A stretch of 64,000 nucleotides of DNA from IMG/VR virus record IMGVR_UViG_3300027899_001695, positions 1 through 64,000 of that record; one strand, 5' to 3'. Shown piece by piece: positions 664-60,910 of this stretch. A model generated the notes under the pieces. That model made no database searches and had not been told where the DNA came from. It saw nothing but the letters and a program-made list of their open reading frames with translations. Source of the DNA: a virus. Numbering within the stretch: the first letter of the stretch is position 1; every line of letters begins with the position of its first letter. The translations under genes were made by a program, and so were the position numbers.

Positions 664-1753
664 CATTTTACGGTTTGATAATATATGGCAGTATAATGCC
701 GCTACAACAGCTACTCCCTATTTAGATTATACTAATAATAGTTATACTAACACGGATTTTACCTTTCTTTCTTCTTCCGCAAATTATATGTACTTGGGTC
801 TTAGTAATAGATTTACGGGAATATATACTGATTTAACTACAGTTGGTTCTTATGCAGGAATGTCCTATAAATATTATGATGGAGATGTATGGCAACCATT
901 GGCACTAATAGATAGTTATTCATTTAGTGAGTCTAAGTATGTGCGTTGGGTGTTGCCCAAATCTAATTGGGTCAAGTATAACTTTGACCAAGATACAGTT
1001 CAGCCCTCTGGTTATCCTGACACAACGGAAAGATACTGGGTTCGCATTTCTGCCAGCGGAGTGACCACTCCTGCAGTTATTAATAAAATTAGGGCAGTTC
1101 CATATGTTTCTTATTCTACCCCTACTAAAGTGTACCAGCTTTTGCAGTTAAAGAAAGATTTCGATTATACTACAAGTCCCACAGATTTAACAGTAGAAGA
1201 TATGATACGAAGAGCAGAAGATTTAATTGATTATAGAACAAGAAAGTCTTGGAGATTTAATGCCATTACAGAAGAAGCCAGTCCTATATTGATAGATTAT
1301 AATAGATACGGAATGTTCTTGAGGTATCGTAATTTTATTAAAGTTTATTCTGTTTCTTTATGGAATGGTGGAAGTTGGCAAGCATTGACAGAAGGACGAA
1401 ATAATGATTTCTTTCTTAATAAAGATTTAGGAATGATTTATATAACCAGGCTGTATTTATTGCCTGCAGCCTATGGAATGACTGGCAGATTTACGAGTTA
1501 TGGCTTTGGCGAATTTAAGAATTCCATTAAAGTAGACTATACCTATGGTAGAGACTCAGAAGTCTTTTCTGAGTTTTATATTGTTGAAGATATTGCTACT
1601 AAAATGGCGGCATGTGATGTGTTAAGACATACAGATTTTAGTGCATTACTAGTATCAGGAACGGATAAAGTTTCGATGGAAGCAAAAATAAGACTAATGG
1701 AAGAGCAGATAGAAGCAAAGATAGATAATCTTACAGGAATTAGCATATGGTAA
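638..1753 (+). CDS. Head-tail adaptor/neck protein with N-terminal beta-sandwich extension
   Basis: YSTPTKV...EDMIRRAEDLIDYRT and IKVDYTYG pattern typical of gp15/gp6-like adaptors; lies before tail genes. Confidence 0.6.
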   Translation: MNLLRRADNILRFDNIWQYNAATTATPYLDYTNNSYTNTDFTFLSSSANYMYLGLSNRFTGIYTDLTTVGSYAGMSYKYYDGDVWQPLALIDSYSFSESKYVRWVLPKSNWVKYNFDQDTVQPSGYPDTTERYWVRISASGVTTPAVINKIRAVPYVSYSTPTKVYQLLQLKKDFDYTTSPTDLTVEDMIRRAEDLIDYRTRKSWRFNAITEEASPILIDYNRYGMFLRYRNFIKVYSVSLWNGGSWQALTEGRNNDFFLNKDLGMIYITRLYLLPAAYGMTGRFTSYGFGEFKNSIKVDYTYGRDSEVFSEFYIVEDIATKMAACDVLRHTDFSALLVSGTDKVSMEAKIRLMEEQIEAKIDNLTGISIW

Positions 1754-2232
1754 GTAGTTTTTCGTACGTGGCGGAGAGCCTACCCCCAGAGCTCTTTAAG
1801 AGTTTGCTGGAAAAGAATTGGATTTCTGTACGAAATATGCCAAAGCCAGATATTATTGTAGTTAATGACCCAGAAGATGCAAGAATTAGGTTTGATATGA
1901 GTACTGGTGATATAATTACAATAGTAACAGGAGGACCTGAGACTATAAAGTATCGTGGTAATGTGAGTTATTATGATAGGGTTTATCCTCTTACGCTTGA
2001 AATTTGGACAAAGGTAGATAGACAAAGATTGCGGGACTTATGGAAACAGATAAAAGGAATTGTGTTTGACCATTTATTTGCTATTCAAGGATACCAGATA
2101 ATAAGACTTCAATCTTATACTGAAATGGTAAATGACGCAGTAAATATCTGGAAAGGACAAGTACGGCTAACAGTCGAGGCCGCTGGTGTTTGTGTAGAAA
2201 CAAATGGAGATTATGATAGATTCAATGTTTAA
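1747..2232 (+). CDS. Putative tail terminator/tail completion protein
   Basis: 161 aa, alpha/beta pattern, synteny between adaptor and tail tube. Confidence 0.5.
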   Translation: MVSSFSYVAESLPPELFKSLLEKNWISVRNMPKPDIIVVNDPEDARIRFDMSTGDIITIVTGGPETIKYRGNVSYYDRVYPLTLEIWTKVDRQRLRDLWKQIKGIVFDHLFAIQGYQIIRLQSYTEMVNDAVNIWKGQVRLTVEAAGVCVETNGDYDRFNV

Positions 2233-2419
2233 AGACAGAGATGAGTATATTGCTAGTTTAAATAAAACTCTTTCGTTTGAAGAAAAGAGGGTTATTAACT
2301 GGGCTTTTAGATACATGGGCAAGGAACAAGCCAATGAATATTTGGCAAATAAAATTGCGGGAAAAAAGGAAAAGAAAGAAGAGATAGTTAAAGTAAAGAA
2401 TAAAGAAGAGGTAATATAA
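2204..2419 (+). CDS. Hypothetical protein
   Basis: Tiles between neighbours. Confidence 0.5.
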   Translation: MEIMIDSMFKDRDEYIASLNKTLSFEEKRVINWAFRYMGKEQANEYLANKIAGKKEKKEEIVKVKNKEEVI

Positions 2420-2420
2420 T

Positions 2421-3467
2421 ATGGCTTATCCAATAAGAGGGGAACAATGGAAACTGGGCTGGTGTCCAGAAGTATCTTACGGTGTTGACCCAAGTACTGC
2501 AGGGAGTGGTTATACAAATTTCTTTGGTGTAGTACAAGATGCTACCTTACCAGATATTCAAACAGACTTTCAACCTTTCTATGGACTTGGCACAAATTCT
2601 GTTCGTAATTGGTATGTGATGTATCGTGGAAAACAGCAGATGTCTGGGTCAATTTCCAATTTTTTAATGTTAGATGGAAAATGCCTTTATCTTGCTTTTG
2701 GAGGTACTTCTGCGGCCCCTGTTGAAGCAAATCTTCTTCCTAGTTTTTCTATGCATGCAGGATATGTAGATACAAATGGGGACACTGCATTGAGACGAAG
2801 ATTTCATGGTGGAAAAGTAAATCGTATGACAATTTCTGCTAATGAAGGTGGTTTTTTAACTGCAAGTATTGATGAGATGATGTTTAGTGCTTATCATCAA
2901 AATGCAACTGCGTCTACAGCTTTTCCTTCTGCTTCTGCTACATATTCTGCGTTAACAGATATTCCTCCTACTACAGAAGGAGCGGGGACAGCTACCCCGT
3001 TTACTTGCGACCAGCCTTGGTTGTTCTCACAGGGGTCTTTACAGTTATGGGGGACTACTTTTGCAAGAGTGCGTAATTTTAGATTAAGTGTAAATAATGC
3101 ATGTCAGGCTAAATATTATATAACAGATACTGCAGCTGACCAACTTCCCTATGAAATAAGAGAAGGAAAACGAGACTATTCAATGAGTTGTACTATAGAT
3201 ATTGAAGATTCTAGTATATATAGCGAATTAGTAAGTCAAGGTGTAAATGCGTTAGGGGAGTTAACAGGTTTTCAAACTATTATTTCTTTTACTAGAGCAG
3301 ATGGAGACCATATTACGATTACTTCACCTACAGCAACTCCTGCTTGTGGAGGTGACTCTCAAGGATGTTTTATTAGACAAGCACCTCATAATATATCAAC
3401 TGGAGAAAACTTATTAGGTGTTCCTATTACAATTATGATGAGGAGTGTTGGGATACACTTAGGATAA
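2421..3467 (+). CDS. Major tail tube protein
   Basis: E.SYG N-terminus, F.GGKVNRMTIS, RVRNFRLSVNN, EIREGKRDYSMSCTID; GAGGT RBS; precedes chaperone and tape measure. Confidence 0.8.
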   Translation: MAYPIRGEQWKLGWCPEVSYGVDPSTAGSGYTNFFGVVQDATLPDIQTDFQPFYGLGTNSVRNWYVMYRGKQQMSGSISNFLMLDGKCLYLAFGGTSAAPVEANLLPSFSMHAGYVDTNGDTALRRRFHGGKVNRMTISANEGGFLTASIDEMMFSAYHQNATASTAFPSASATYSALTDIPPTTEGAGTATPFTCDQPWLFSQGSLQLWGTTFARVRNFRLSVNNACQAKYYITDTAADQLPYEIREGKRDYSMSCTIDIEDSSIYSELVSQGVNALGELTGFQTIISFTRADGDHITITSPTATPACGGDSQGCFIRQAPHNISTGENLLGVPITIMMRSVGIHLG

Positions 3468-3492
3468 AATAAAAACGGCTAGGAGGGAAAGA

Positions 3493-5825: not shown

Positions 5826-8800
5826 ATGGCAATTGGTACACAACTATATTATTCTAGTACTAATGACCCTGCTACAGAAACATGGCTTCCAGTAGGAGGG
5901 GAACCCGCAAAGATAAAGATAAAGATAGTAGATTCTGCTATAGGTGTTCCTAGAACAATGGAAGCCTACCTTATTAATACTATGGTAGGTGGGGTGCATG
6001 AGAAGGAAGGTATTTATACGGCATATAGACGTGTTAAAGTAGTAGAGTATGGAACAACTAAAACAATATTTGTTGGAAGAATTAATACTTCTCAACCTAC
6101 CCAAGATGATTCATATGGCCAAATCTTAATTATAACAGCTACTGATTATTTACAAGCTTTTCTTGACCGCAAAATTAATACAGACTATAATTCTGATACT
6201 GCTAATTTAACAGGGTATACACGTAGTCAGATTATTGGGTATATAATTAATGGAAAAAACGCAGATGGTGTGGTATATCCATCTTATAATGTACCTACTA
6301 ATTATATTACGACCAATATTACTGCTTCTCCCTCTACTGAAAAGATTAAAAGACAATACGCCTCTTCTAATAAGACAGTAGCAAGAGCAATTGAAGAATT
6401 GGCCCAAGAAGAGCCTTGGAGCGACAGAACTTGGTCAAAAGTATGGATTAACGGAACTTCTCGTACAGATATTAATACTAACGCTTATTCTTTTTTAACT
6501 GCGGGTAGTCAGTATGCTTATTGGGGTCAGACTGCTCCGTTTGTAGGAGTTAATGTTACTAATGTGTCTGTAGTAGGCAGCTATGGTAGTTTTACTTGGC
6601 AATACTATGCTTCTGATTTAACTTGGAAAAGTTTAACAATACTTCAGACTACTACTTTTGGTACAATTAGCATGGAAAGATGGGAAGTTCCTTCAGATTG
6701 GACCCAAGTTTCTGTGTTAGGTACTACTGCTTATTATGTTAGATGTCTTGCTTCTTCCGTTTCTTCTGTTTCTACGTTAAAAGCGGAGTGTGCGGTTGGA
6801 GTAGGTTTTAATTATTATGTTGATGAAAATGGGGTTTTTCAGTACTTTAGAAAGGGTTCAAGACCTGTAGGAGGCCCTGTTGCAGCAGGACTAACCTTTT
6901 CTCTTAGTCCAAATCCTTCATTACCTCTTACTCAAAGACAGATAATGGCTAATTATGAGTTTACGAATCAGCCTAAAGAGATTGTAACTAGAGTGTATGT
7001 GAAAGGAACTGCTGCAGATACAGGAAATATCGTGAGTGCTAGTGCTTGTAATGCTGCTCTTGAAACGCAGTTAAACACTATAAAAGAAAAATGGGATTTT
7101 ATATCTGGTTCTGGTATGACAACTGCTGAATTAACTACCTATGCTCAAAATAGAGCAAATAGTTTACTCTATTCTAGGTCTTCCACAGTTGAAAGAGGGG
7201 CTGTTAGTGTAGTTCGGTATCCTTATTATACTATTGGTGGAGTAGTTACACTTCTTAGAGCTGGGGATTTAGTTCGTGCCAAGTGTTCAATGACTGGAAC
7301 AGATATGGATTATGAAGTAATTGATATTGAGTATACAGAACCGAATGTTTCAGCTAGAATAAATCTTATCTCTCCATCTGCTGGAAGAGGTTCAGAAGCA
7401 GATGACATGTCAAATATAATAAATCGGTTAAAAGATGGAGATGACAGTGTTATTCCTTCTGCAAGAATTGGTGATTTAATTGCAAAACATATTACAGCAG
7501 GGGATATTGATGCTGGTTCCATTACAGTTGATATTGATTTAGCTAGCGATGGTGAGGGTGGGGGAGGAACTCTACAATCCGCTAACTTTGTTCATGGTAC
7601 TTCTGGGTGGCAAATTAACTATGATGGGGTAGCAGAGTTTCAAGATATATATCTTCGTGGTGAGATTTATAGTGGAAAAACATTAAGTGTTGGTGGTGGG
7701 TCTTTTACTGCAGGTACTGTAACACTTGATTCTTCTGGTGTAAAAATAAAAAATACGGCAGCAGATGCTTCTACATGTTCTTTTTATACTTATGGAAATG
7801 TTTTAAGTGGTGAAATTTATGCTAAATTTCCTGCTACTGGGATGTATTTATATAGTTATGGGACCATTGATTTAGAAGCCGCTAAAGGCGATATATCTAT
7901 TGGAACTGCTTCAGGCTCTGTTGATTTTTATGCTCCTTATGGAGATTATCATTTTCATAATGATGGTTTTACTTCTCCCCCATTTTTAATTCTTCCGAGT
8001 GCTGCAGCTACAGCAACAAAAGCCAACGGCTCTTTGTTTTTTAATTCTGCTACAGATGCTTTTATGGGTAAAACGGCAGCAGGTTGGGTTACTCTTGGTG
8101 CTTTGTCTTTTCCTGCACATGCTTTGGATAGTGCTTCGCACACTAATTCTGCTAATTTAACGAGTTCTTTAACGGCTACATCTGCTCGTACTGGTTTAAT
8201 GAGAGCCTTATCAAATGTTTCTGGTGAATATTTTAATGGTACTGGTGGTTGGACAGTTCCTACTACTGTGGCTACACATTATCTTGATGACACTTCTATT
8301 CATATTGGGTTATCTGATACTATAAATTTAAATACTTCTTCTTTTACTCATGGACTTTGTCCTAAATTAGATGGAAATGTGGCACACTTTCTTTCTGGTA
8401 TGGGTACTTGGCTGACCCCTTCTGTTGGGCATTCACCAAATGCCGATTGGGGGATGGCCTCTGGAGCTGGGGCAGCTTCAGGTACTTTATTTCTTTCTGG
8501 AGCTTTGGTATCTGATTTAACTATTAATAATGGGCTATCTATAAAAAGTGCAGGAGCTTTCAATGTTCAAGGAAATGGTTCTATTACTGTTAGAACTACT
8601 GGAGTAGGGGGTATTACATATATTGGGGATTCTAATATAACCAGTTCATCTGTTCGTATTTATGGTGGATTAAATGCAGACCTGCTTATACAGGCGACTG
8701 GAACTGGTCGTATTTATATGAGAGCGGCACAAGGAATGATAATGCCTACAGCTACAACGGCCCCTACTACGATAACTACTGGGGCCATGTACTATAATAC

Positions 8801-9914: not shown

Positions 9915-9937
9915 AATAAAAAAGCGGAGAAAATGAA

Positions 9938-11155
9938 ATGGCTTGGGGAACAACAATAAAAACAACAAAGGTACCAATTGCAATAAAGGATTTTAAACTT
10001 TATACAATGTCTGGAACTGCTCTATGGACAAAATTAAGTCTTGCAGGAATTGGGACACCGATGGGCATGCTTGATAATACATATTATTATACAGATGAAG
10101 CAGGTTGGAAGTTAATTCTAGGAGATTTAGTGCAGAACTCTTCTCTTTATGTTACCGATAGATATGACTGTCCACTTCCATATGATTTAGCTTTCTCTTT
10201 TGGGCTTTTTTATGCAGATGGAAGTAGTTCTATCAATGAGAAAAAAGGGTATTATAATTGGTATATCTGCAATTCCAATAAAGAGTTGTTGGAACGTTGT
10301 ATAGGGCCTTTGGAACGAGAGTGGGGGTTTAATTTTAAAATACATTCTTATGATTCTGAGAAAAAGGGTACACAAACGAATTTTGGGGAAAGAAATAAAG
10401 ATATCTATAGATTAATTACTAATATTGGTGCAGGAAATAAAAGAAAAAGCCCTAGAAAAGACTTTATTAAAGAATGGCACCAAATGTTTCATACGGAAGG
10501 GGGTAGGAAGAGAGTTCCTGGGTGTATCATGGAAAGCCCCTTGGAAACTAAGCAGGCTTTTATTGATGGGGTTATTGAAGGAGACGCTCATAAGAAAGGC
10601 CATATGTTGGGTGTTAAGAATAAATATACTTTAATGGAGCTTTATATCATTATGGATGAGCTTAGTCTTAATCCAAAAGCTTATCCAGAAAAACGAAGAG
10701 AAGATTTCTGGTATTTGCATTATTCTTTCTTAAATAAGCACGATTCTTATATTGCAAGATTCTTGGAAAATAAAGATTGGACTTCTGTTCAGGCAATAGC
10801 GAATGAATTTAAAATGTCTAATGGAATGGTTGGGGGCATTTTAGAAGGAATGGAAAAGAAAGGAAATATTATATTTCAAAAACCTTGGTCACAAAGAAAA
10901 GAAGTAAAACTAGTAAAAGGAATTGAAGCACATTGTGACAAGTTTGCAATGAAAGCGAGGGTTTTAGCATTTGAAAGGTATGGATTAAATTCTTGTGGTT
11001 TTGTAATTGGTGATGTACCACAAGGAAGACATAGTTTTAATTTAATTGTAACGACAACTGGTTTTCTTTTATTTGAACCGCAAAATACTGTTGCAAACTT
11101 TGGGGTTTTTCCTTTGGGTGGTAGAGATTATAAAACGGACATTGTCTTAATCTAA
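9938..11155 (+). CDS. Papain/transglutaminase-like cysteine peptidase (YDCDKFA...HSFN...FEPQ) interrupted in frame by a LAGLIDADG element; candidate lysin
   Basis: Removing aa 78-332 restores a 150-aa protein with Cys-His-Glu triad motifs; position after tail genes and before membrane proteins. Confidence 0.65.
   Translation: MAWGTTIKTTKVPIAIKDFKLYTMSGTALWTKLSLAGIGTPMGMLDNTYYYTDEAGWKLILGDLVQNSSLYVTDRYDCPLPYDLAFSFGLFYADGSSSINEKKGYYNWYICNSNKELLERCIGPLEREWGFNFKIHSYDSEKKGTQTNFGERNKDIYRLITNIGAGNKRKSPRKDFIKEWHQMFHTEGGRKRVPGCIMESPLETKQAFIDGVIEGDAHKKGHMLGVKNKYTLMELYIIMDELSLNPKAYPEKRREDFWYLHYSFLNKHDSYIARFLENKDWTSVQAIANEFKMSNGMVGGILEGMEKKGNIIFQKPWSQRKEVKLVKGIEAHCDKFAMKARVLAFERYGLNSCGFVIGDVPQGRHSFNLIVTTTGFLLFEPQNTVANFGVFPLGGRDYKTDIVLI
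10169..10933 (+). mobile_element. In-frame LAGLIDADG homing endonuclease + winged HTH insertion lacking a Hint domain
   Basis: LAFSFGLFYADG and AFIDGVIEGDA motifs; C-terminal wHTH (SVQAIANEF...LEGMEKKGNI); starts Cys, ends His, followed by Cys. Confidence 0.7.
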
Positions 11156-12467: not shown

Positions 12468-12572
12468 AAGTACACCGACTCAATTGGATGGGGAGGGGAG
12501 GAGCCGAAACATGCTCGTCACCTTCCCTTCTGATTTTGGAGGGGGTATTGACACAGGGTATATAATAGTATT

Positions 12573-13016
12573 ATGAACTGCACAGATATTCGGAGTTATT
12601 GGGAAGATAAATACCTTAAAAAGTTTAAATATCCCTATTCTTCTCCAAAAGTTATCATGGAATTAACTCTTTTAAAGAGGTTAATAAAGGCATATAATGA
12701 ATATATAGTCTTAGAGGCTATAGATTCATTCTTTAGTGGTAGTAAAACAGCAGATAAAGTAACAATTCCGTATTTTGCCACACCAAAAGTATTCAAAGAT
12801 ATTAATAGAGAGATACTTTTACTTAAAGATGTTGCAAAGTACTTCAGATATTTAAAAGATAACAAAGTAGACAGAAAAAAGCGGAAGAAAATAGAAGAAT
12901 TATTGCATGAATATATAGATTACAAGACAGCGATGGTTCTATTTGATTACGAAAAGCTTAGATTACCAGAGATAATAAACGAATTAGAAGGAGAAATCAA
13001 TGCAACAGGGATATGA
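12573..13016 (+). CDS. Hypothetical replication-associated protein, probably leaderless
   Basis: Precedes helicase; TATAAT at 12561-12566 six nt before ATG. Confidence 0.5.
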   Translation: MNCTDIRSYWEDKYLKKFKYPYSSPKVIMELTLLKRLIKAYNEYIVLEAIDSFFSGSKTADKVTIPYFATPKVFKDINREILLLKDVAKYFRYLKDNKVDRKKRKKIEELLHEYIDYKTAMVLFDYEKLRLPEIINELEGEINATGI

Positions 13017-14208
13017 AGACCGTTTCCTATCATCAATCAATAATCTAGAAGACCTTTCAGACGTTAATTTAGCAGGGATTACTCCTGAAACCCTTGTAAT
13101 TCGTAGAGAAGTGCTTCAATTCATCATGACATACGCTTCTAGACATCAATCTTTCCCCGCAAGGGACTTAGTAGAGCTAGAATTCTCTGATTTTAAGTAT
13201 ATGGATGGGGTAAAGGCGGAAGAACGGCAGTTCTTGATGAAAGAGCTGATAAAATCCGAAGTTAGACGTAAGGTAGTTAATATTATAGATAAAAGCTCTA
13301 CTATGTTGCATAAAGATACGTATGGAACAATTGATTATCTTCAATCCCAAATTTCTCAAGTTAAAAGGCCCGTTTCTTTCTCTAAAAGTTACACAGATAA
13401 AGAAGCTTTAAGTCGTTTAGTAAAATTGCGGGAAAGAAAAGAAAAATTAAAGAAAGGCGGGATACTTGGAATTAAAACAGGACTATCTTTCTTTGATGCC
13501 CAGCTTCTTGGTTGGCAAGCTGGTAACTTAGTAGCTATTATTGCTAGATTAGGGATTGGGAAGTCTACTTTAGGTACTTATTTATCGTGTTTTGCCTATT
13601 CAGAGGGGTATAGAGTGGCCTATCTTAGTCCTGAAATGACTACAGAAGAAGAAGAATTGAAATGGGATACCACAATGGGTGCTTTAATGGGTTATAAGTT
13701 CTCTACTTCTGGGCTTATGAGAGGAGAAGTAAACGAAAAAGAGTATGAAGAGTTCCTTCTTAAGATGTCAGAACGAAAAGATTGGTTGACAATGGATTCG
13801 GCTCAGAATAAAGCTTTTACTTTACCTGCTATTGAGTCAATTATTGATGAGTTCTCACCAGATGTTGTCGTAATAGATGGCTTTTTGCTACTTAATATTG
13901 GTGATAAATCTCCACAGAATATGGAAAGGGCTGCAAATGAATTAAAAAGCATTGCTTTAAGTCGTAGAGTCGTGATGTTGGTTACATCACAGGCAAACCG
14001 TCAAGCTGGAACTGAGATGCCTGAGATGCATCAGGTCTATGGCACAGATGCTCTTGGGCATGCCGCAGATGTTGTCATTATGATGGCAGATGATGAAACT
14101 AAGCCTAATAAACGGTGGGTTTCTATCGCTAAAAAGCGTATGGGAGCAGGAATCAACAAGAAAGTACTCGTGAATTTTGATGTGGATATCGGCTCGATAG
14201 GTGGGTAG
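13000..14208 (+). CDS. dnaB: Replicative DnaB-like helicase
   Basis: Walker A ARLGIGKS, SPEM, VVVIDG Walker B, SQANR, ADVVI, KKR. Confidence 0.9.
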   Translation: MQQGYEDRFLSSINNLEDLSDVNLAGITPETLVIRREVLQFIMTYASRHQSFPARDLVELEFSDFKYMDGVKAEERQFLMKELIKSEVRRKVVNIIDKSSTMLHKDTYGTIDYLQSQISQVKRPVSFSKSYTDKEALSRLVKLRERKEKLKKGGILGIKTGLSFFDAQLLGWQAGNLVAIIARLGIGKSTLGTYLSCFAYSEGYRVAYLSPEMTTEEEELKWDTTMGALMGYKFSTSGLMRGEVNEKEYEEFLLKMSERKDWLTMDSAQNKAFTLPAIESIIDEFSPDVVVIDGFLLLNIGDKSPQNMERAANELKSIALSRRVVMLVTSQANRQAGTEMPEMHQVYGTDALGHAADVVIMMADDETKPNKRWVSIAKKRMGAGINKKVLVNFDVDIGSIGG

Positions 14209-15263: not shown

Positions 15264-15533
15264 GGACTAAGGGGGAACCCTGATGAAGCGTATAAATAAC
15301 TTTAGCTTTTTATGAGTTATTGAAGTGGGAGTAAAACAGACGACAATGGCACTTTATAAGGAGTCTTATAAAGGATAAATTAGGCTACTAATATAAGAAC
15401 ATATACTTTTGAGATTATATAGTATGTAAAAGCGGGAGTTAAACAGAAAAGACATGGCAAATTAATCAAAGGTGAATTCAAACGCCTTTGATGTGGGAAA
15501 CAAAATAAATAAAAAAACGGAGAAAAGAATTAA
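15264..15533 (+). repeat. Intergenic structured tandem element (two ~29-nt repeats each flanked by hairpins)
   Basis: AAGTGGGAGTAAAACAGACGACAATGGCA (15323-15351) and AAGCGGGAGTTAAACAGAAAAGACATGGCA (15430-15459); hairpins 15352-15373 and 15465-15492. Confidence 0.6.
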
Positions 15534-16259: not shown

Positions 16260-16392
16260 GTAAATAATTGGTAATGGTGGTCAAGTTTACGGAATATCTG
16301 AAGTTCTGCTCGTCAGAAGCAGTAGGATAGGATATAGGAGTGACCTTAAAAGTAGAGGGTACCATTATCAAAATAAAAAAGCGGAGAAAGAA

Positions 16393-16551
16393 ATGAAAGG
16401 TTTAGCAATTTATACATGAATCTTAATGGGGCTACTGGTGCTGTATGCAATCCTATCTCCAGATTATGAAGTATTCACCAAGTTATTTTGTTTAGGAATG
16501 TATACACCAGTAGTAATTTTAGCAATTAAAGTAGTAAAAGGAGACAGATAG
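16393..16551 (+). pseudogene. Small 2-TM membrane protein ORF with internal TGA at codon 9
   Basis: MKGLAIYT*ILMGLLVLYAIL...KGDR; GGAG RBS; stop abuts next ATG at 16553. Confidence 0.5.
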
Positions 16552-19687: not shown

Positions 19688-19731
19688 TATACTGATTTTA
19701 GTTGTAGAGATAAATAAGGTATAATTATACT

Positions 19732-21924: not shown

Positions 21925-22351
21925 AGTTATATATGGAAAGTATCACTCGGTTCCTTGTAAATTTGTTATTACAGAGGAACAGATTAACGAGGCTAAAGAG
22001 GCTATGCAATATCTAAATAATTGCAAATGGCAAGGAAATTTACAGATTAATATTAAACCAGACAAGATTTATCATGAAAATGCTAAAGAACTGCTACAGG
22101 AACTAAATGCTTTTATTTATGTGGATAAAGAGTTCATGAGTTTATCTTATGATGGCTATGAAGGCGTTGATTATATTACAGAGATGCTGGATATTAGGAA
22201 ACTCCCAAAGATGTGGGCCTCAACCTCTTTTATGGATAACTTGACAGATAAGTACGGTGGTGATATAATAGACAGGCGTTTATTATCAGATGAAGATAAA
22301 GAGAATTTAAGACATTTAACTATTATGTATAAATTAGAGGAGAGCCAATAA
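21914..22351 (+). CDS. Hypothetical protein
   Basis: Tiled ORF. Confidence 0.5.
   Translation: MTIKVIYGKYHSVPCKFVITEEQINEAKEAMQYLNNCKWQGNLQINIKPDKIYHENAKELLQELNAFIYVDKEFMSLSYDGYEGVDYITEMLDIRKLPKMWASTSFMDNLTDKYGGDIIDRRLLSDEDKENLRHLTIMYKLEESQ
22241..22269 (+). promoter_or_regulatory. Perfect sigma70 promoter with extended -10, inside CDS
   Basis: TTGACA-N17-TATAAT, preceded by TGn. Confidence 0.7.
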
Positions 22352-23792: not shown

Positions 23793-23816
23793 TATTTGCT
23801 TTGAAAGAATTAAAAA

Positions 23817-35241: not shown

Positions 35242-35249
35242 GAGGAGAA

Positions 35250-48236: not shown

Positions 48237-51200
48237 GTGGCAAAGAAGAGAAAGGAAACAAAAAAAGAATAGAGAACGTATGCCTAAACATGGTAAGGCA
48301 CAGGCACAAATTTATTCTGATAGCTTAGAAAAGCGGGAAAAGGAGAAGAATAAATTGCTTGGTAGGATTGATAAAATGCTTATGAAGCAAACTCCTCTTG
48401 AAGACACTATGGGTAAGAATCTTCAAACTATAAAACCGCAACAGTTAGCAAAAGTAACTAATACAACTATACCTCAAGCAGGACAACAGATTAAACAGCA
48501 ACAAACCCAGAATAGGCAGGTAGGACAAAATGCTCCTCAGCAACCACCCGCACAGAGAAACATATCCTTTGGCCCTAATGGAGCAGACTTATTACCAAAT
48601 GAGATAAAACAACGTCTGGATAAGTTTAATAGTCAGGACCAACTTATGCAGATAAATGAGACTGTAAATCTTAATGCTAAGAATCCGCAAGATTATGAGA
48701 TGGCCAAGTATCTAGCACGGTCTGGTAGTCCAAAGGTGCAAACAATGGCATTGAATAAGCTATCAGCACAGGATTTAGATACAATGATACAACCAACGAG
48801 TCCTAATACAGATGCCGTAGCGATACTTGCTCAAAAGACTCAAAATCCTAGCTATATGCGTAGTATGACAAAACATACTTCTCCCCAAGTACGAATGAAT
48901 CTGTTAAAGAATCCGAATATAACTGACTTGACGATGAGTGAGATGTATGATGATAATGATGACCAGATACGGAATCGGATTGTAGGACAATCAACTAATC
49001 AAGAGCTATTACATTTATTCATTAGTGATAAGAATCCACAAATACGTGCTAGATTAGTAGATAAACTTGACCACGATGGTCTAAAGATTTTACTTACAGA
49101 CTCAGACCCTCATGTACAAGCAATGGCTAAAAAGAAGCTACAAGGTCGTTTTAGTAAAATGGAAAAGTCTGGCAACTTCCAGAAACCTAAACGCCCAATT
49201 TTTATTCAACAAGAGACAGATAGACTTGATAATAATCAGACGACCAGTATCTCTCCTGAGAGACTACCACACTTTAGTCATTTAGGAGATGTAGGTAGTA
49301 ATTCTGTTAATGGTAAGACTTATAATACTCCTTCCTTTAGCAACAAGTCTCTTATATTAAAAGAGATTACTCATTTTATAAAAAAAGCGGAAGGAGAGAT
49401 AGAACATAGGATGCTCAAACCTGAAGATATACAGGCTTGGATTGAGGACCAGATTAAAAGTGCTAAAGAAGAATATCCAGATATAGATATAAATGATATT
49501 AATAGTAAGAATCTGTCTCCTTTACATTCTCGTGTTATCAAACCTATTATATATGCAAAACAATTACTTGTAGATTACCCAGAGTTAAATGCAAAAGATA
49601 GAGCAAATATAACAGGCACCTTCAAAAATGGTAAATTAGAAGCGGTTCATTCAATAAGAGAAAGTGGTCCTTTTGGTTCTCATCTAAATGTGGTACTTTC
49701 TCATATTAAAAATGCTAATCCAAATAACCCAAATGCTTCTAAAGGTATGGGTAAGGCTGCTGCACGTAGAGCCATTGAAATTAGCCGTAATGGTGGAAAA
49801 ACTTTAACAATTAGTCCAGATACGAATGCTGCAGAATGGTGGCGTAAAAATGTAAAAGACCCTACGAATGGGATGATTACAATTAAACCTGCTGAATATG
49901 AGGGGGTGTTATCACGAATGGACACTCCTAAGATTGAAAATGAAATGGATGAAGAGTTTACATCCTATGCAGAACCTTTGAGAAAAGATAAGATAATGAA
50001 AGCTGACAAGCAGAAGACTTTCCCAATAGAGGGGGAACAGTTACCATTGCCAGATGTAGGACATGAGTATGATAAAGAAGCTACACAGTTTCCTGTAAGA
50101 TTGCCTACTAAAGCAAATTCGTATCATAATGCATTTGGTAGATACTATCAAGGTCCAGATGGGGGAAAAAGACGTCTTGTTCCTTTAGATGAGTTAATAG
50201 ATGCGCCAAAAACACATATGGCTACGAATTTAGGTATGACTGAAAGTGGACGATGGTATAGACATAGATTTCCTGATACAATGCAAGATGAAGCTGAACA
50301 ACATGAATCGAATAGAGAGTATGATAGAGAAGAGGAAAGACGTAGACTTCAACAAGAGACAGATGATGATGAAAGAGAAAGAGAATATGGTTATGATTCT
50401 GATAGAGATGATGATGAAGATATAACAGGAGATGAGGATTATAGTAGTAGTGCAAATCTACCAGAAACAGAACTACCAAATGGGGCTATTAAACGAGGTG
50501 ACCATGTGTTCCATAAAGCTAGAAATATACAGATAAATGATGAGGAGAATGAGAAGTTTTTAAGACAGGCCTCACAGGAATGGTCTCGTTATTCTAATTA
50601 CAATCCTTCAACAAGTGGTAAATATGGAGGTAGAGGGGGTCGAGGTGCTGCTAGTGTGAGCATGCTACAGGGGGTTCTCGGTTCTTATTTTAGAGATGTA
50701 CGTGCAAAAGAAGAGGACCCTAGTTATGAACCTTGGAATAAGTATATGTTTGTAACCTCTAAAAGAGGCACAAAGAAAAAGTTAGAAGGGGCGACTCGAT
50801 ATCAGATGGGAGATGGTAATATACATATTGAATATTTAGCGTCTTCTCCACGAAATGAGAAAGGTATGCCTAATAGATTAAATGGAACTGGTAAAAGAAT
50901 AATCTATAAACTTGCTAAGATGTTAGATAAGCAATCTAAAGTTCCTGGTGGGAATCAACTGCCTTATATACATCTAACCTATCTTCCAGATGCTGTTCCT
51001 TTTTATGAAAGGATAGGTTTTAAACATGATGGGTATGGTCTTACTTTAGATACTCAGGGCATTCGTAACTTGCTTAAAAATGTGCGTAAAGATGACAAAT
51101 CAGGTAGTCCTTTCTTTAGAAAGGATGCCGATGATTGGGATAATGGATGGGATGACCCTGATGATTATGCAGAAGACGAAGTTGTTAATAAAGCTGTAGG

Positions 51201-51348
51201 GATGGTTGGTGATGTATCCACTCCTACGTTCAATGGTTCTGCAGGACAGAACTATAAGAAGAAGATTGGTAGTGCTTTGCATTTCAAGGCAAGGGGAGTA
51301 GAAGGAGTCTTTGATGTAATGAAGTCTGTTAAATTTGAGGATGTATAA
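48223..51348 (+). CDS. Polyvalent protein: HEAT/LRV-like repeats plus two GNAT-like acetyltransferase domains
   Basis: D.DP.VR-type repeats; KGMGKAA..RA...NAAEWWRK; IHIEYLAS...NGTGKRII...DAVPFYERIGF. Confidence 0.65.
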   Translation: MAEYKWQRRERKQKKNRERMPKHGKAQAQIYSDSLEKREKEKNKLLGRIDKMLMKQTPLEDTMGKNLQTIKPQQLAKVTNTTIPQAGQQIKQQQTQNRQVGQNAPQQPPAQRNISFGPNGADLLPNEIKQRLDKFNSQDQLMQINETVNLNAKNPQDYEMAKYLARSGSPKVQTMALNKLSAQDLDTMIQPTSPNTDAVAILAQKTQNPSYMRSMTKHTSPQVRMNLLKNPNITDLTMSEMYDDNDDQIRNRIVGQSTNQELLHLFISDKNPQIRARLVDKLDHDGLKILLTDSDPHVQAMAKKKLQGRFSKMEKSGNFQKPKRPIFIQQETDRLDNNQTTSISPERLPHFSHLGDVGSNSVNGKTYNTPSFSNKSLILKEITHFIKKAEGEIEHRMLKPEDIQAWIEDQIKSAKEEYPDIDINDINSKNLSPLHSRVIKPIIYAKQLLVDYPELNAKDRANITGTFKNGKLEAVHSIRESGPFGSHLNVVLSHIKNANPNNPNASKGMGKAAARRAIEISRNGGKTLTISPDTNAAEWWRKNVKDPTNGMITIKPAEYEGVLSRMDTPKIENEMDEEFTSYAEPLRKDKIMKADKQKTFPIEGEQLPLPDVGHEYDKEATQFPVRLPTKANSYHNAFGRYYQGPDGGKRRLVPLDELIDAPKTHMATNLGMTESGRWYRHRFPDTMQDEAEQHESNREYDREEERRRLQQETDDDEREREYGYDSDRDDDEDITGDEDYSSSANLPETELPNGAIKRGDHVFHKARNIQINDEENEKFLRQASQEWSRYSNYNPSTSGKYGGRGGRGAASVSMLQGVLGSYFRDVRAKEEDPSYEPWNKYMFVTSKRGTKKKLEGATRYQMGDGNIHIEYLASSPRNEKGMPNRLNGTGKRIIYKLAKMLDKQSKVPGGNQLPYIHLTYLPDAVPFYERIGFKHDGYGLTLDTQGIRNLLKNVRKDDKSGSPFFRKDADDWDNGWDDPDDYAEDEVVNKAVGMVGDVSTPTFNGSAGQNYKKKIGSALHFKARGVEGVFDVMKSVKFEDV

Positions 51349-53332: not shown

Positions 53333-54775
53333 ATGACTGACTTAGATAGCATACGGTATAGGTTAGAATTACTATTAACCAAAGCTACACCTATGTCTGA
53401 ATATGATAGGATGATAAATGAACCAGACTTTGGTGCAGATATTGGTGGTATTCCTAACTTTTCTTCTTCTTCCGCAAAATCTAGAAAACCCAAAGCTCCT
53501 AAAATTCCAGTAGCGGAAGAGGGTGAAGTACAGCCGTATGTGTCTAATAGACAAAAGAAAGCAGAGAAGAGACGAAAAAGACAAGCAAAATTAGACGCAT
53601 TATTTGGTCAGTTTGTTGACCAAGAACAACAAGGGCTTCCTCCTAATCCTAAATTAAAAGGTCAAATAGACAAATATCTTAGAAGAATGTTTAAGGTGGA
53701 TGACTTAGATAAGGAATTAGCAGGAATGTCTCCTGAGGACCCTAATTATGCATCTACTCAAGATAAGAGAGACATGGCTCATAAGTTATGTGCAATTCGT
53801 GTTAATGCGGAGAAAGCAAAAGCCAGAACAAGTATGGGGCATAAAATGGAGAAAGCTTTATGGGGGGGAGACCCAAATGCTGTTCCAGAAGAACACCCCA
53901 ATCAAGCTAAACAAAGCCAACTTAACTTCTTTCCACAACATGAAAAAGCACCGCCTGTTAGACCCCAGTCAACAAAAGAAGGCCGAAGAGTATCAAGACG
54001 CCCTTTACGGAACTCGTTAATAAAGAGCATATTTAATTTTGGTAACATGCTTGAAAAAGCAGAAGGACCAAGAGACTATTCACAACCTGTCGATAGTGCT
54101 GAGGCATTTAAATATCGCAGGAATGTCCCCTCTGAACGAAGGGCTAATTACGAAGTTCTTAGAGAACAGGGTTTTACACCAGAAGAAGCTACTCGCTTAA
54201 AGGATTGGAAACCTGGGCCTTTAAGGACTATCATCCAGAACAAAGATAAACCCAATAGGGGGTTAGACCCTGAATGGATTGATGACCCACAACAGAAAAT
54301 GGATAAAGAGTTTGAGTTACTGGATGATTATAAAAATGCGGGAATAAAGAAAATTCCAGGAATGGAACCAATTGATGCAAATGAAGCACAAAGACTAAAT
54401 CAGTATTACCAACAAGTAGGTAAACCACTTATTCATGTACCTACACCAGAAGAATTTCAATCTCAAATGTTACAATACAAAGAAATGAAGAGAGAGGGTA
54501 AAGCACCCCCTATGTTTAACAAGGCATTAGCATATTTATTTGATTTAGATATCTCTAAAGCAGGAAATGCTATTAAGGAACTTGAAGACTTTATTAGAGA
54601 GTATGAAGCTACAATTAAATCAAGACCAAAGAACTGGTCACCAAAGGATATAGCTTCGCATACTCGTATGTTAAACAATGCTAAACAGCACTTAGAGGGC
54701 TACTATAAAAATAAACTTGTAGCTCCTGAAGCTCCTAAAATGCCCTTACAACAACAGTTACCTTTGGAGTATTAA
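53333..54775 (+). CDS. Modular putative head protein
   Basis: LTKA, MEKA, NSLIKSIFNFGNMLEKA, ISKA. Confidence 0.5.
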   Translation: MTDLDSIRYRLELLLTKATPMSEYDRMINEPDFGADIGGIPNFSSSSAKSRKPKAPKIPVAEEGEVQPYVSNRQKKAEKRRKRQAKLDALFGQFVDQEQQGLPPNPKLKGQIDKYLRRMFKVDDLDKELAGMSPEDPNYASTQDKRDMAHKLCAIRVNAEKAKARTSMGHKMEKALWGGDPNAVPEEHPNQAKQSQLNFFPQHEKAPPVRPQSTKEGRRVSRRPLRNSLIKSIFNFGNMLEKAEGPRDYSQPVDSAEAFKYRRNVPSERRANYEVLREQGFTPEEATRLKDWKPGPLRTIIQNKDKPNRGLDPEWIDDPQQKMDKEFELLDDYKNAGIKKIPGMEPIDANEAQRLNQYYQQVGKPLIHVPTPEEFQSQMLQYKEMKREGKAPPMFNKALAYLFDLDISKAGNAIKELEDFIREYEATIKSRPKNWSPKDIASHTRMLNNAKQHLEGYYKNKLVAPEAPKMPLQQQLPLEY

Positions 54776-55456: not shown

Positions 55457-55789
55457 GTGGACTGCTATACTGTATTCGACACACTTGATATTATAACATT
55501 TATAATACTGTGTATTACTAGTTGGTATTCTTATAAAATATATAAGTTATTACCAGCACAAATGGTAACCTTTTTATTTATTGGATTTATTCTTTCCGCT
55601 TTTTTACAAATAGGGTTTGTAATAATTAGTTTTATACCTTTAGATGGGGAGTTTTTGATTGTAAATAGATTTATTGGAGAACTGACAGTAGCTTTAAGAG
55701 TAATACCGATTGCTTTTATTATGATTGGAACGATAAATCTGTATAAAGTAGTTACTAAATATATCAATGGAAATGGAGGTATACACTAA
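55457..55789 (+). CDS. Three-TM membrane protein
   Basis: Three hydrophobic segments; GTG start. Confidence 0.55.
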
Positions 55790-56035
55790 TGGGTTGTTCA
55801 ACATGCCCAATTTGCGGAGAAAGAAAACCTTGTCACGATGAGATTTGCTATAAATGTGAGTTGCAAAATCTCGATATAGGTAGAGATAAAAAGGAAGATA
55901 AATAAATGCCGTTTGGTCTATGTTGTTGTTTCTGGACTAACCTTGGGATGGGATTAGCATTGCTATTTCCTTTTCTTTCTGCCGCAATTTTTTATATAAC
56001 TAGTAAGTTCAAGAAACATGAATGTGAGGACGAAG

Positions 56036-57321: not shown

Positions 57322-58775
57322 TGAAGAATATTCTTCGTGACGTAGAACAAGAAATTGAGAGACGTGGCATCCAAGAAGATGATGTTGCAGATATTGTACA
57401 AAGTGTGCCTGCATTAAAGAATCGGAGGATAGTGGGCGGTTATGCAAGTGTAATTATGGTAGATAGAGAAGGCCACAAGATTACCAAAGAAGCTTTAGTT
57501 GATGCTACAAAGAGATTTATGGCTGAGATTTATTATCGCCCCATAAATGTGTTTCATTGCTTGACGGGGGAAACTCAAATAAGAACTACCTCAGGTTATA
57601 AAAATATAGAAGCAATTAAAGTAGGAGATAAGGTTTATACTCATACTGGAAAGAGCCAAAAAGTAACTAAAACGATTATGCATGAAAACAATGGCTTGGC
57701 TTTAAGATTAGAATTAGAGAATGGTGAAGTTATTCGTGTAACAGACGAGCATCCTATCTTAACTAAACGTGGGTGGGTAAAAGCAGGTGACTTAACTACT
57801 CAAGATATTCTTCTGCATTTAGAATCGTCTGCTAAAGAATACCATGATAAAGTACGAGGAAAGTCTTTAGTAGGTATATTTGGTATAGAGAAAGCTAAAG
57901 AAGTGTTATTAAAAATGCGGGGAAAAAGAGAAAGTTATACTGTTACAGAAAAACATAATTCGCAACAAAGAAAAGGGCATACATGGCAAGAAGTATATGG
58001 TCATAATAAACCTGATTATGGTGGCTGTGTTGGAGAAAAGAACCCTCAATTTGGTAACAAGGGTAGAATAACTGGAGAAAAGAACCCTAACTGGAACAAT
58101 GGGGCTTCTCTTATAGCTTATGGAATAGGGTTTACTAAAGAATTAAAAGAAAATATACGAAAAGCGTGTGACAACAGATGCTTCTTATGTGGAGAACAAC
58201 CCAAATATAGTCTTTCAATACATCATATTGATTACAATAAGAAGAATAATCAAGAAGATAATTTAATTGCATTATGTAGAAAGTGCCACATGAAAGCACA
58301 TAATGAAGAACGATTGGCTATTAAGAACGGAACTAATATCAAGTCTATCGAGAAGTTTTGGTATACTGGAAAGGTGTATAATCTTGAAGTAGATATAGAC
58401 CACACATATGTAGGAAAAGGTATTATCTACCATAATTCAGATGTTACAGTTGGAAGGATACTTCCTAAGTGGGCAAACCCAAAAACAGGTCAGATAGTAG
58501 TAACGCATGTAGATGATACTGGATGGTATATAGTTGCAGAAATTCGTGATGATGTTGAGATTGCTGATAAGGTATGGGAAGAGATAGAAAAAGGAAACTT
58601 ACGAAGTTTCTCAATTGCAGGGTCTTCTAAAGATAAAACTGAGGGATATAAAGATGGGAAGTTTATGACTGAAATAACAAAGTTAGACATATACGAAACT
58701 ACGATTTGCGAAGAGCCCGTTTGCCCTATGGCTAAATTTGACTTCTTCTATAATCCTAACGAAACTATAATGTAA
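57321..58775 (+). CDS. Prohead (capsid maturation) serine protease, HK97-type, with intein (mature ~191 aa)
   Basis: GYASV..VDREG, NVFH|S.VTVG, G.LRSFSIAG, YETT..EEP. Confidence 0.9.
   Translation: MKNILRDVEQEIERRGIQEDDVADIVQSVPALKNRRIVGGYASVIMVDREGHKITKEALVDATKRFMAEIYYRPINVFHCLTGETQIRTTSGYKNIEAIKVGDKVYTHTGKSQKVTKTIMHENNGLALRLELENGEVIRVTDEHPILTKRGWVKAGDLTTQDILLHLESSAKEYHDKVRGKSLVGIFGIEKAKEVLLKMRGKRESYTVTEKHNSQQRKGHTWQEVYGHNKPDYGGCVGEKNPQFGNKGRITGEKNPNWNNGASLIAYGIGFTKELKENIRKACDNRCFLCGEQPKYSLSIHHIDYNKKNNQEDNLIALCRKCHMKAHNEERLAIKNGTNIKSIEKFWYTGKVYNLEVDIDHTYVGKGIIYHNSDVTVGRILPKWANPKTGQIVVTHVDDTGWYIVAEIRDDVEIADKVWEEIEKGNLRSFSIAGSSKDKTEGYKDGKFMTEITKLDIYETTICEEPVCPMAKFDFFYNPNETIM
57558..58436 (+). 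mobile_element. Prohead protease intein (293 aa, HNH)
   Basis: CLTGETQI...TDEHP...HHIDYNKKNN..NLIALCRKCH...IIYHN|S. Confidence 0.9.
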
Positions 58776-58946
58776 GGAGAGTAAGAATGACAGTAGCAAT
58801 AATATGGATGATATGTGTAATAATATTACAAGTAGTACTAACAGTATTAATATGGAACAATGATACAAGATTAACAAGACTTGAAAAGACCAAGAAATCT
58901 TCTCTTTTCCCCGCAAAATTAAAAACAAAAGGTAAGGTAATACCCT

Positions 58947-59564: not shown

Positions 59565-59565
59565 A

Positions 59566-59603
59566 TGAAGAAGCCCAGACTAAAAATCTGGGCTTTCTTT
59601 CAT
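59566..59603. terminator. Intrinsic, probably bidirectional terminator
   Basis: AAGCCCAGA-CTAAAAA-TCTGGGCTT followed by TCTTT; between convergent genes. Confidence 0.8.
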
Positions 59604-59754
59604 ATACCGACATCGCAACATCGGTACTTAAATTGGTGGTGTACACCACAATGCAAGAGCAGTAAACAAGAGTATTAGTCCGATTGCCCATACAAGTAAT
59701 AACCTACCAAATCCCTGCATACTGTCAGTCTCCATATTATTCATCTTATGTCTA

Positions 59755-60069
59755 TTATACTCCTTTAGAGACATCTTTCAAACTATCTAGCTTTGTATTA
59801 ATTCCTTTTCCCCACATTTTTATTTTAATTGGTTCGTTATTTCCAAACTTCTTGTATACTCTGCATATCTCACAGATGGAAGTATCATCCCCTGTTGCAC
59901 CGAAGTCATTGAGTTTGCAGTAAGTCCCTTCAATTTCCCAACAATGTAGGAACGTGTATTTAGGTGCAGGACAGTCACGCTTAATCATCTCAGGACAATG
60001 GCACTTGTCCCAACAGGCTTCTGTGTCTTGCCATACACTTGTTTTGGTTTCCATTTCTATCTTATTCAT
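59755..60069 (-). CDS. Two-CW-type Cys-rich protein; only credible minus-strand gene
   Basis: CW..CHCP....CPA.....CWEIEGTYC...C..C.VY; AGGAGG RBS; TTGACC-N18-TATAAT promoter at 60126-60097. Confidence 0.75.
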   Translation of the reverse strand: MNKIEMETKTSVWQDTEACWDKCHCPEMIKRDCPAPKYTFLHCWEIEGTYCKLNDFGATGDDTSICEICRVYKKFGNNEPIKIKMWGKGINTKLDSLKDVSKGV

Positions 60070-60177
60070 GATTTCCTCCTACTTGATTTATACCTTATTA
60101 TATAGTATAATAGGATGGTGGGTCAATAGAGCAAAAGGCGTAATCGGATATACGCATAAATGCTTAGAGTATGGGGT

Positions 60178-60208
60178 AGGTAGCTTCAAAACCCCCCTGT
60201 GCTATACT
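60178..60208 (+). promoter_or_regulatory. Putative early promoter, copy 1
   Basis: AGGTAGCTTCAAAACCCC..TGTGCTATACT, 29/31 identical to 63894-63924; extended -10 TGcTATACT. Confidence 0.7.
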
Positions 60209-60273
60209 GTCCACAGAGAGAAAAAATGCGAAGAAAAAGACAAAAAGCAATTAAAAATGTGGAGAAAAAGAAA

Positions 60274-60910
60274 ATGCTTATTAATGAGATTAAATGTACT
60301 CTTGCAGAATGCCCTCATTATCATGCTTGGCATAATGGTAAGTATCCTACTGATGGAAGATTGTGTGCTTATTATCCTAATTTAAGTACTACTCATTGTA
60401 ATAAATGGACAAGGATAGATGAATTTAAGTTGTTTTTAGCAATTCATAAGGAGAAACGAAATGTCGAGAAGTTATAAACATATTGCTTGTTATACAGACC
60501 ATAATGCTTCTACATGGAGAAGAAAGCGTTGGGCATCCAAAGCTATTCGTAGGAAGATACTTGAGTTAGTAGATGGTAATATGTATAAGAAAATATATGA
60601 AACTTGGGCTATTTGTGATTATCGTTTTAAGGTAGGATTTAAGATACCTAACCATTGGTCATACGAAGATTTAGCTAAAGCAAGGAGAAAGTAAATGGAA
60701 TGTAAAGAATGTAACAATGCTATTGTGCATGTTGATGGAGTAACGGCCCATATACAAGGAGAGTGGCACGTAGTAGAACGTAAAGCACGTATGGTTAAAG
60801 CACATAAATGCGGTTATCATTTAAACTGCTTTGAGTATAGGTTTGACCCTTTTAAACGATGTCTATTAATAAAAAAAGCGGAGAAAGAAGAAAATGAAAA
60901 CAGAGATTAG
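60274..60910 (+). CDS. Three small early-region hypothetical proteins (ending 60477, 60694, 60910)
   Basis: Tiled ORFs with GGAG RBS. Confidence 0.5.

Follow-up and report, generated by a model that had tools for sequence, protein, structure and literature searches.

The window analysed here, the first 64 kb (64,000 nucleotides) of the single 100,207-bp virus record IMGVR_UViG_3300027899_001695 of freshwater metagenome origin, carries many copies of a three-part sequence word, an A/T tract followed by GCGG and a purine run, which is scattered over both strands inside and between genes. The genome has a G+C content of 36%, and ~95% of its open reading frames (ORFs) lie on the plus strand. Tail proteins are encoded (PHROG tail match), and the genes for terminase, portal and prohead protease all bear inteins. 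A ribonucleotide reductase (RNR) gene is located in the window, and the replication and recombination set comprises a DnaB-like helicase, a DnaG-type primase (CHC2/Toprim), a family A polymerase, RecA and a PD-(D/E)XK nuclease. Outside the window lie genes for an SU10-type capsid protein, for a NusG homologue and for a small protein that carries two helix-turn-helix (HTH) motifs. It is labelled a provirus by IMG/VR, although a search of the 100-kb record has found no Phage_integrase, Resolvase or HTH_3 repressor.

The word extends over ~25 bases and consists of a T followed by an A(n)T(m) tract of 5–7 bp without any TpA step, the invariant tetranucleotide GCGG, and a purine run of 12–18 nt. 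Full copies number 56 in the genome (42 plus, 14 minus), 30 of which fall within the window, and the cores of A-tract and GCGG amount to 74. The tract obeys a strict rule, as only TpA-free tracts are enriched ahead of GCGG, with each of the six A(n)T(m) pentamers, AAAAA via AATTT to TTTTT, taking part, whereas TpA-containing tracts occur at 0.8–0.9 times expectation; this rule is confined to the GCGG core and is not displayed by other cores. In most full copies the tract measures 5–7 bp, within an overall range of 4 to 8 bp, and the preceding T has been found in 13/14 minus and 26/42 plus full copies. C never occupies position −1, because CGCG is totally avoided in this genome. The 12 nt downstream of GCGG contain on average 10.0 purines in plus copies and 8.7 in minus copies, where ~5 are expected, and the median length of the purine run is 14–16 nt. 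The copies share no likeness outside about −12 to +20 and are scattered at random, which together argue against a mobile repeat; a mobile element or insertion has likewise been ruled out by the dissimilar flanks and by the uninterrupted RNR domain that holds one of the copies.

The density is ~1 copy per 1.3–1.8 kb, with 69–75% of the copies on the plus strand. The spacing has a coefficient of variation of 1.06, by which regular spacing is rejected, the sites are unclustered, and the strand ratio stays constant along the genome without any switch of bias. Neither the regular intervals nor the change of orientation expected for a priming or polar signal, which the initial annotation had considered, is thus seen. 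Its proposed link to segregation through the phage tubulin has also found no backing, as the tubulin gene is followed by two small genes whose acidic products are not DNA binders of the TubR type, and the sites do not cluster. A role as start sites for a DnaG-type primase or for R-loop primers, with the pyrimidine strand as template for a pppGCGG-purine primer and both strands needed as forks run both ways in recombination-dependent replication, would draw on the phage's own DnaB-like helicase, CHC2/Toprim primase, family A polymerase and RecA, on the observed density and use of both strands, and on the stable hybrids that purine RNA forms with a pyrimidine template. It is nevertheless highly improbable, given that the spacing is random rather than regular, that the A(n)T(m) rule is left unexplained, and that DnaG-type primases recognise trinucleotides, which suffice for them and make a 25-bp word unneeded.

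Among the 256 four-base cores, GCGG ranks first on both strands in the share of its copies placed in a W3-core-R4 context (W, A or T; R, purine), with 22.5% vs ~5% on one strand and 8.8% vs ~1.5% on the other. It also ranks first in absolute count for the full architecture (42 plus, 14 minus), though GCGG itself is rare (151 and 91). As the null model we have used synonymous-codon shuffles that preserve each protein and the codon usage of each gene. A weight matrix trained on 64–100 kb, outside the window, and tested on the window has yielded 19 in-gene plus matches vs 6.3 ± 1.9 in the shuffles and 6 in-gene minus matches vs 0.7 ± 0.7, counts matched on either strand by none of 300 shuffles. 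Genome-wide, the full motif occurs in genes 17 times in sense orientation vs 2.15 (7.9-fold) and 11 times in antisense orientation vs 1.06 (10.4-fold), where the largest counts among 400 shuffles are 7 and 4, respectively. The same equality of strands appears for shorter versions, namely an A(n)T(m) tract of four with GCGG (sense 25 vs 5.3, 4.7-fold; antisense 19 vs 4.1, 4.6-fold) and of five with GCGG (sense 20 vs 2.7, 7.4-fold; antisense 14 vs 1.8, 7.8-fold). Rare codons are recruited to build the word in all three frames: the Ala codon GCG rises from 8.5% overall to 8/20 (40%) within WWW_GCN_GRRRR (p = 1e-4), and the Arg codon CGG from 4% overall to 5/13 (38%) within WWG_Arg_RRRR (p = 9e-5). 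An unbiased scan of 8-mers against the synonymous null places AAATGCGG and AAAAGCGG at the top. The word is strongly selected and a real feature of this genome. Since fold-enrichment is equal in both orientations, the 3:1 excess on the plus strand reflects the greater permissiveness of a purine-rich coding strand rather than a stronger pull.

The initial annotation had described a dispersed GCGG motif at 25 plus-strand and 8 minus-strand positions of the window, and every one of them bears GCGG (CCGC on the plus strand for the latter) in the context described. Our stricter definition retains ~18 of the 25 and 7 of the 8, leaving out 14853, 39120, 45100, 51408, 51795, 53807, 56185 and 12146. 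The enrichment over codon-preserving shuffles that it anticipated holds on both strands, and its remark that copies lie in different reading frames and within inteins applies to all three frames and to the terminase, portal and protease inteins. The trivial explanation it had allowed for, by ribosome-binding site (RBS) use and runs of Lys and Glu codons, does not account for the enrichment, because copies also occur in antisense orientation, in every frame, within inteins and within the RNR gene, and because the enrichment survives shuffling.

Copies have been found in every module, i.e., tail, lysis, replication, packaging, head and small-gene region. A subset of 15–17 plus-strand copies is positioned 10–23 nt (mostly 14–17) ahead of a gene-opening ATG, so that the initial annotation was right in suggesting that some copies double as RBSs. 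Within the window, such full copies are located at 9918–9939 (ATG at +14, opening gene 9938–11155), 23812–23834 (ATG at +16 of a 94-aa gene behind the tubulin gene), 24083–24105 (ATG at +16 of a 52-aa gene), 27371–27393 (ATG at +16) and 60871–60893 (ATG at +16, opening gene 60894–61529), to which a full copy in an intergenic gap at 16375–16396 with an ATG at +12 of a short ORF can be added. Several RBS-type copies overlap the 3′ end of the preceding gene, as the one at 27371–27393 does with the methyltransferase gene 26820–27407. Most ATG-proximal copies read GCGGAG (12/18, vs 8/~40 elsewhere), whereby the motif itself supplies the GGAG of the RBS. A purine-rich element of the GGAG type at 5–11 nt from a start codon is, in sum, present in 15–17 of the 42 plus copies and missing from 25–27 plus copies and all 14 minus copies.

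Elsewhere on the plus strand, copies fall anywhere along a gene and in any of the three frames. A full copy with 12/12 purines (AAAATT-GCGG, 2351–2372) precedes the minor-tail gene at 2421 by 64 nt, and another (12875–12896), in which the first G takes codon position 3, lies in gene 12573–13016, 119 nt before the DnaB-like gene, which contains a further full copy at 13422–13443. Full copies are also placed in the small gene 22351–22662 (22392–22412, with a separate AGGAGA after it), in the terminase intein (32564–32584), at the 3′ end of ORF 35205–35624 (35575–35595, 54 nt before the portal gene), twice in the 1041-aa gene 48223–51348 (48329–48348; 49380–49402, with AGGAGAG after GCGG), in gene 53333–54775 (54332–54353), in a 38-aa Cys-rich ORF, 55789–55905 (55809–55829), and in the prohead-protease intein (57911–57932). 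The full copy in the RNR gene (28434–28455) belongs to the conserved N-terminal domain, and the Pfam alignment shows no insertion there. Two weaker copies with 9/12 purines are located in the gap 15264–15533 (15428–15447) and in the portal gene (35955–35976). With both strands taken together, the intein copies comprise 32569 (terminase), 37777 (portal) and 57917 (protease). As a −1 frameshift heptamer, A_AAA_AAG matches the copy at 12881 alone, and this candidate has been discarded.

The start-proximal copies raise the possibility of a translation-initiation cassette, in which an A-rich enhancer, a GCGGAG Shine-Dalgarno sequence and a purine spacer would cooperate and which might in addition serve an RNA-binding regulator as operator or an RNase as target; it would owe its spread to the duplication of small genes, with all other copies as by-products. 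The distance to the ATG, the preference for GCGGAG at starts, the similar distance at which the general RBS of the genome, AAGGAG(A/G), is found, and the abundance of such copies in the small-gene region with its paralogous microproteins all speak for it. Yet a start codon is lacking behind 38 of the 56 full copies, and the in-gene enrichment, antisense included, survives shuffles that keep the amino acids. Internal in-frame starts have been rejected, as in-frame ATGs follow in-gene copies at chance level (6/28 vs ~16% expected). At 78553, 75138, 49387 and 22397 a separate AGGAGAG follows GCGG, so that GCGG itself is not the Shine-Dalgarno sequence there. Judged by the canonical anti-Shine-Dalgarno sequence, the invariant GC and the TpA-free tract would have no pairing role with a standard 16S tail, and the dissimilar flanks give no sign of descent by duplication. 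A cassette as the primary function of the word is consequently quite doubtful.

The 14 minus-strand copies have neither a start codon nor an ORF behind them. Perfect antisense copies occur at 780, 30264, 53475 and 58914 in the window and at 76758, 81976 and 98370 outside it. Those of the window with 12/12 purines comprise 765–785 (in the plus-strand gene 638–1753, with no start codon behind), 30249–30269 (in gene 30182–30655), 53460–53480 (in gene 53333–54775) and 58899–58920 (between the protease gene and gene 58947). Antisense copies with 11/12 purines are placed at 37762–37781, in the portal intein/LAGLIDADG region, and at 55970–55993, in the gap before gene 56018. A copy with 9/12 lies at 55584–55605 (in gene 55457–55789), and weaker ones, also with 9/12, at 25252–25271 and 25319–25339 (both in gene 25178–26305) and at 33573–33594 (in the terminase gene). 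A pairing of antisense with sense copies has been considered and dropped, as 6–7 of the 14 antisense copies are within 400 nt of a sense copy vs 33% expected, which is not significant.

Copies without an ORF behind them would be compatible with a promoter that lacks a −35 element, in which TAAAAA(W) acts as a −10-like element, transcription starts at or after GCGG into a purine leader, and a host polymerase redirected by the phage is used; copies in genes would then act as internal promoters, and those in antisense orientation would give rise to antisense RNAs. The T found ahead of the A-tract in 39 of the 56 full copies fits this proposal, as do the TATAAT-like or TATAAA-like hexamers in some antisense copies (780, 30264), the copies 35–120 nt ahead of genes at 2357, 12881, 35580, 56185, 96809 and 98632, and the four copies with a separate AGGAGAG. 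The motif further resembles late promoters of the T4 TATAAATA type, which rely on an A/T-rich element but no −35 box, occur dozens of times per genome, in part within genes, and are followed by short leaders. The motif differs from these in its antisense enrichment, its lack of TpA, its variable spacing and the failure to find a phage sigma factor: sigma-70 region 2, T7-type RNA polymerase and the DxDGD motif have not been detected in the phage. Antisense in-gene enrichment equals that in sense, while antisense promoters should be neutral or purged. Compared with a −10-only sigma-70 promoter, TA is frequent at the tract boundary, but the tract of 4–8 bp may also be all A or all T and excludes TpA, as −10 elements do not, and TA stands at a variable 5–8 bp from GCGG. 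The copies are, moreover, evenly spread along genes with no shift towards the next gene, and sigma-70-type promoters already stand before most modules (TTGACA with TGTGnTATAAT, plus an array of GTAGCTTCAAAACCC...TATACT, n=9). For these reasons, we consider a promoter function unlikely.

Both expression signals predict no antisense enrichment, and as primary roles they are disfavoured on this ground. Equal enrichment in both orientations favours a signal read on double-stranded DNA, and so does the A(n)T(m) rule, which describes a duplex rather than a single strand. We therefore tentatively favour, as a reading that may well turn out correct, that the word is a duplex-DNA recognition signal for a putative chromosome-handling protein and is merged with the RBS between genes. 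The asymmetric signal of ~25 bp would be read by a protein, and its TpA-free A(n)T(m) tract is of the kind that narrows the minor groove. The ~56 full copies (74 cores) per 100 kb would be kept wherever the coding sequence tolerates them, in either orientation, as a "genome word" of the Chi or uptake-signal type rather than a promoter or RBS. The reader would handle the phage chromosome as DNA, be it in controlling a helicase-nuclease or in shielding the chromosome from it, in recombination, in compaction or in a recognition of the uptake type. Between genes, where the sequence is A- and purine-rich anyway, the word would have merged with the translation start region, with GCGGAG providing a GGAG Shine-Dalgarno sequence; we infer that the intergenic copies are the same DNA word placed at least cost. 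The DNA-level site for a genome-handling factor that the initial annotation had envisaged is supported in this general form by the strand-independent enrichment and the tract rule, whereas the support stops short of any of the specific functions it had listed. A possible reader is an early protein of 167 aa (genome 77606–78109), which, judging from its predicted domains, combines a sigma-70 region-4-like HTH, a second HTH (HTH_17), a Cys4 zinc ribbon and a basic tail, and might be a sequence-specific DNA binder.

Chi-type words and uptake signals with a GCGG core appear to be the closest working analogies. Chi of E. coli, GCTGGTGG, and the other words of RecBCD/AddAB enzymes are read as single-stranded DNA and protect linear or rolling-circle DNA. 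Like them, the motif is asymmetric, scattered through genes in all frames by codon skew, and specific to a host or lineage. AGCGG in B. subtilis and GAAGCGG in S. aureus are Chi-like words (PMC8022716), and the activity of E. coli Chi is strongly raised by A or G at nucleotides 4–7 of its 3′ flank (PMC5041463). Two Chi-like words thus end in (A)AGCGG as the motif does, and the flanking purines parallel its purine run, so that the Chi-like option of the initial annotation has some support in the literature, though this does not extend to a Chi-like function. The motif is over-represented in genes with 69–75% on the plus strand, as expected of Chi, yet its fold-enrichment is equal on both strands; it is ~25 bp long vs 5–8 nt, its 5′ tract follows a duplex A-tract rule, and no polarity relative to ends or replication is apparent.

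The uptake signals of Pasteurellaceae (AAGTGCGGT / ACAAGCGGT) and the uptake sequences (DUS) of Neisseria occur about once per 1.2–1.8 kb on both strands, lie in genes and are read as duplex. The motif shares with them a similar density, the use of both strands and of all frames in genes, flanking A/T tracts, and a GCGG core whose 5′ side is A-rich; the likeness of the core to that of Pasteurellaceae had been noted in the initial annotation. For the Pasteurellaceae signal the resemblance goes no further than GCGG and the A-rich side, as the consensus T-A(n)T(m)-GCGG-R does not match the rest of the 9-bp core, and the two helically phased AT tracts downstream of the Pasteurellaceae core are absent, a continuous purine run standing in their place. 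The carrier is also a virulent-looking environmental phage, for which no drive mechanism is evident. A further parallel is offered by the stoperators of cluster A mycobacteriophages (L5 gp71), where dozens of asymmetric sites are spread over all modules with many in stop-start gaps. Stoperators are, however, defined sites of 13–14 bp that are tied in orientation to transcription and read by a prophage repressor, whereas the motif is enriched regardless of orientation and two of its three parts are degenerate. With sense and antisense fold-enrichment equal and no Phage_integrase, Resolvase or HTH_3 gene found in the 100 kb, a repressor network of this kind has been rejected. The motif is a genome word of a new form and is most likely read on DNA. 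That its ~60 copies serve a particular DNA-handling machine, such as a Chi-like helicase-nuclease or one of the uptake or organisation type, encoded by the host (possibly Patescibacteria) or by the phage, is possible but rather unlikely in this specific form.

Several points weigh against the duplex-read word. Its strongest copies lie 10–23 nt upstream of start codons, as an expression signal would predict, intergenic copies are almost all plus-oriented, and the T before the tract with the purine run behind it resembles a −10-like element that leads into an initial transcribed region. At ~25 bp the word is longer than the known Chi and uptake words, and the A(n)T(m) rule is hard to reconcile with Chi, which is read as single-stranded DNA. 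The equal fold-enrichment rests on small counts (11–25), whose confidence intervals allow a two-fold strand difference, and the synonymous-shuffle null ignores codon-context effects, which are present here (GAC-C is preferred as GATC is avoided).

The NusG homologue of the phage suggests yet another reader, which would recognise the non-template strand within the transcription bubble in the manner of an ops signal and, by recruitment or pausing, couple transcription to ribosome loading immediately ahead of start codons. It is full-length (genome 81398–81904; NGN 1e-12, KOW 1e-8), and its best solved relative is NusG of B. subtilis, a reader of TTNTTT on the non-template strand, from which it differs in 5/7 DNA-contact residues, so that another specificity is possible. 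The ops element of RfaH includes GCGG and sits before the first gene (PMC7819879). Close homologues of the phage NusG (62–83% identity) have been found only in contigs of near relatives, the next best match being a Patescibacteria NusG with 31% identity; NusG and motif co-occur in that a 106-kb relative has neither. This co-occurrence is a single comparison, however, and a general NusG requires no site. Beyond GCGG, the motif has nothing in common with the 12-nt GGCGGTAGnnTG, and ops is found once per operon in the leader, whereas the motif reaches ~50 copies per 100 kb, extends beyond leaders into genes and keeps no fixed distance from the sigma-70-type promoters. Antisense enrichment equal to sense and a tract rule of the duplex rather than the single strand are likewise at variance with such a signal, and we regard it as very doubtful.

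The word is a recent trait of one lineage, as judged from sequence comparison with relatives of graded distance. A close relative, L202, has been found via the capsid protein (78% protein identity, 79–93% DNA identity), and site-by-site conservation has been compared at one orthologous copy: L202 retains an in-frame counterpart of 91393 that includes the rare GCG codon, amid diverged, indel-bearing surroundings. Further near relatives have been seen as proteins of 82–97% identity. A complete 106-kb relative of equal G+C, with 63% capsid and 46% polymerase identity, contains 2 matches to W4-GCGG-R6 vs 38 here and 58 GCGG vs 242. A comparable word built on a different core is missing from it, as are GATC avoidance and a NusG gene, and the word is absent from distant relatives found through the polymerase (≤64% identity). 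L202 also shows complete avoidance of GATC, CCGG and CGCG. The word travels with host-specific traits such as restriction-site avoidance. In the present genome, short palindromes are nearly absent, with observed/expected counts of 2/321 for GATC, 0/103 for CGCG, 0/103 for CCGG, 11/103 for GCGC and 80/321 for TCGA, and the avoidance of GATC is visible in codon pairs, where GAC is strongly preferred if C follows. Near-copies with variant cores lie at 60228 (GCGA) and 60259 (GTGG), in the leader downstream of the promoter at 60180, and in contigs of a second metagenome a relative has GCGG at the site of 60228, followed by a deletion of ~230 nt.

Searches further afield have been less productive. 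A scan of viral contigs with an exact 16-mer of the motif has returned single chance matches and one unrelated contig, L112 (IMGVR_UViG_3300032247_000524; 27% G+C), with tandem GCGGAGAAA at 7924–7950 and 10974–11010, inside an inverted duplication. Neither a prophage relative nor a host has turned up in a genome collection, no RNA run that contains this DNA has been found, an Rfam search of the window has given zero matches, and a literature search with the literal motif sequence has yielded primers only.

Genome-wide selected words such as Chi, uptake signals, KOPS and stoperators have each revealed a DNA-handling machine. The present one, very clear and borne by a large environmental phage, joins an unusual three-part anatomy to a structural A-tract component and overlies both coding sequence and RBSs. 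If a DNA-handling machine of the above kind reads it, it would be the first such word for the uncultivated host group, and its three-part, duplex-read form would be new. A host enzyme as reader would make the word a host-specific signature able to link phages to uncultivated hosts, a phage protein would represent a new genome-wide DNA-protein system, and in either case the sites could be used as a ready-made pull-down probe. Words of this type also call for caution in annotation, as they look like RBS or promoter motifs and can cause genes and promoters to be predicted wrongly.

Some minor observations concern the repeat character of the sequence. The copies at 49380–49402 in the window and 78546–78568 in the genome are identical over at least 19 bases, and contigs from the source run and a second metagenome break or switch exactly at the motif copies 49388, 49399 and 58914; the word behaves as an assembly repeat. 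In genes, the purine word AAAGAAA (90 vs 54 in synonymous shuffles) and the complements TTTCTTT (30 vs 13) and CTTTCTT (20 vs 6) are enriched, which is not accounted for by motif copies alone. The promoter array mentioned above consists of a 29-bp promoter-like box, GTAGCTTCAAAACCC-N4-GTGnTATACT with an extended −10, in nine copies ahead of small-gene cassettes, two of them in the window (60180–60208, 63896–63924) and seven in the genome at 68810–76093; a scan of viral contigs with this pattern has found no match. Strong −10 boxes of the TGTGGTATAAT or TATAAT type have furthermore been observed to end 5–11 nt before an ATG without a Shine-Dalgarno sequence, at 12540–12575 and 19715–19734 in the window and at 81908–81930 and 86793–86809 in the genome, and the closeness of these boxes to the ATG suggests leaderless or near-leaderless mRNAs for some genes.

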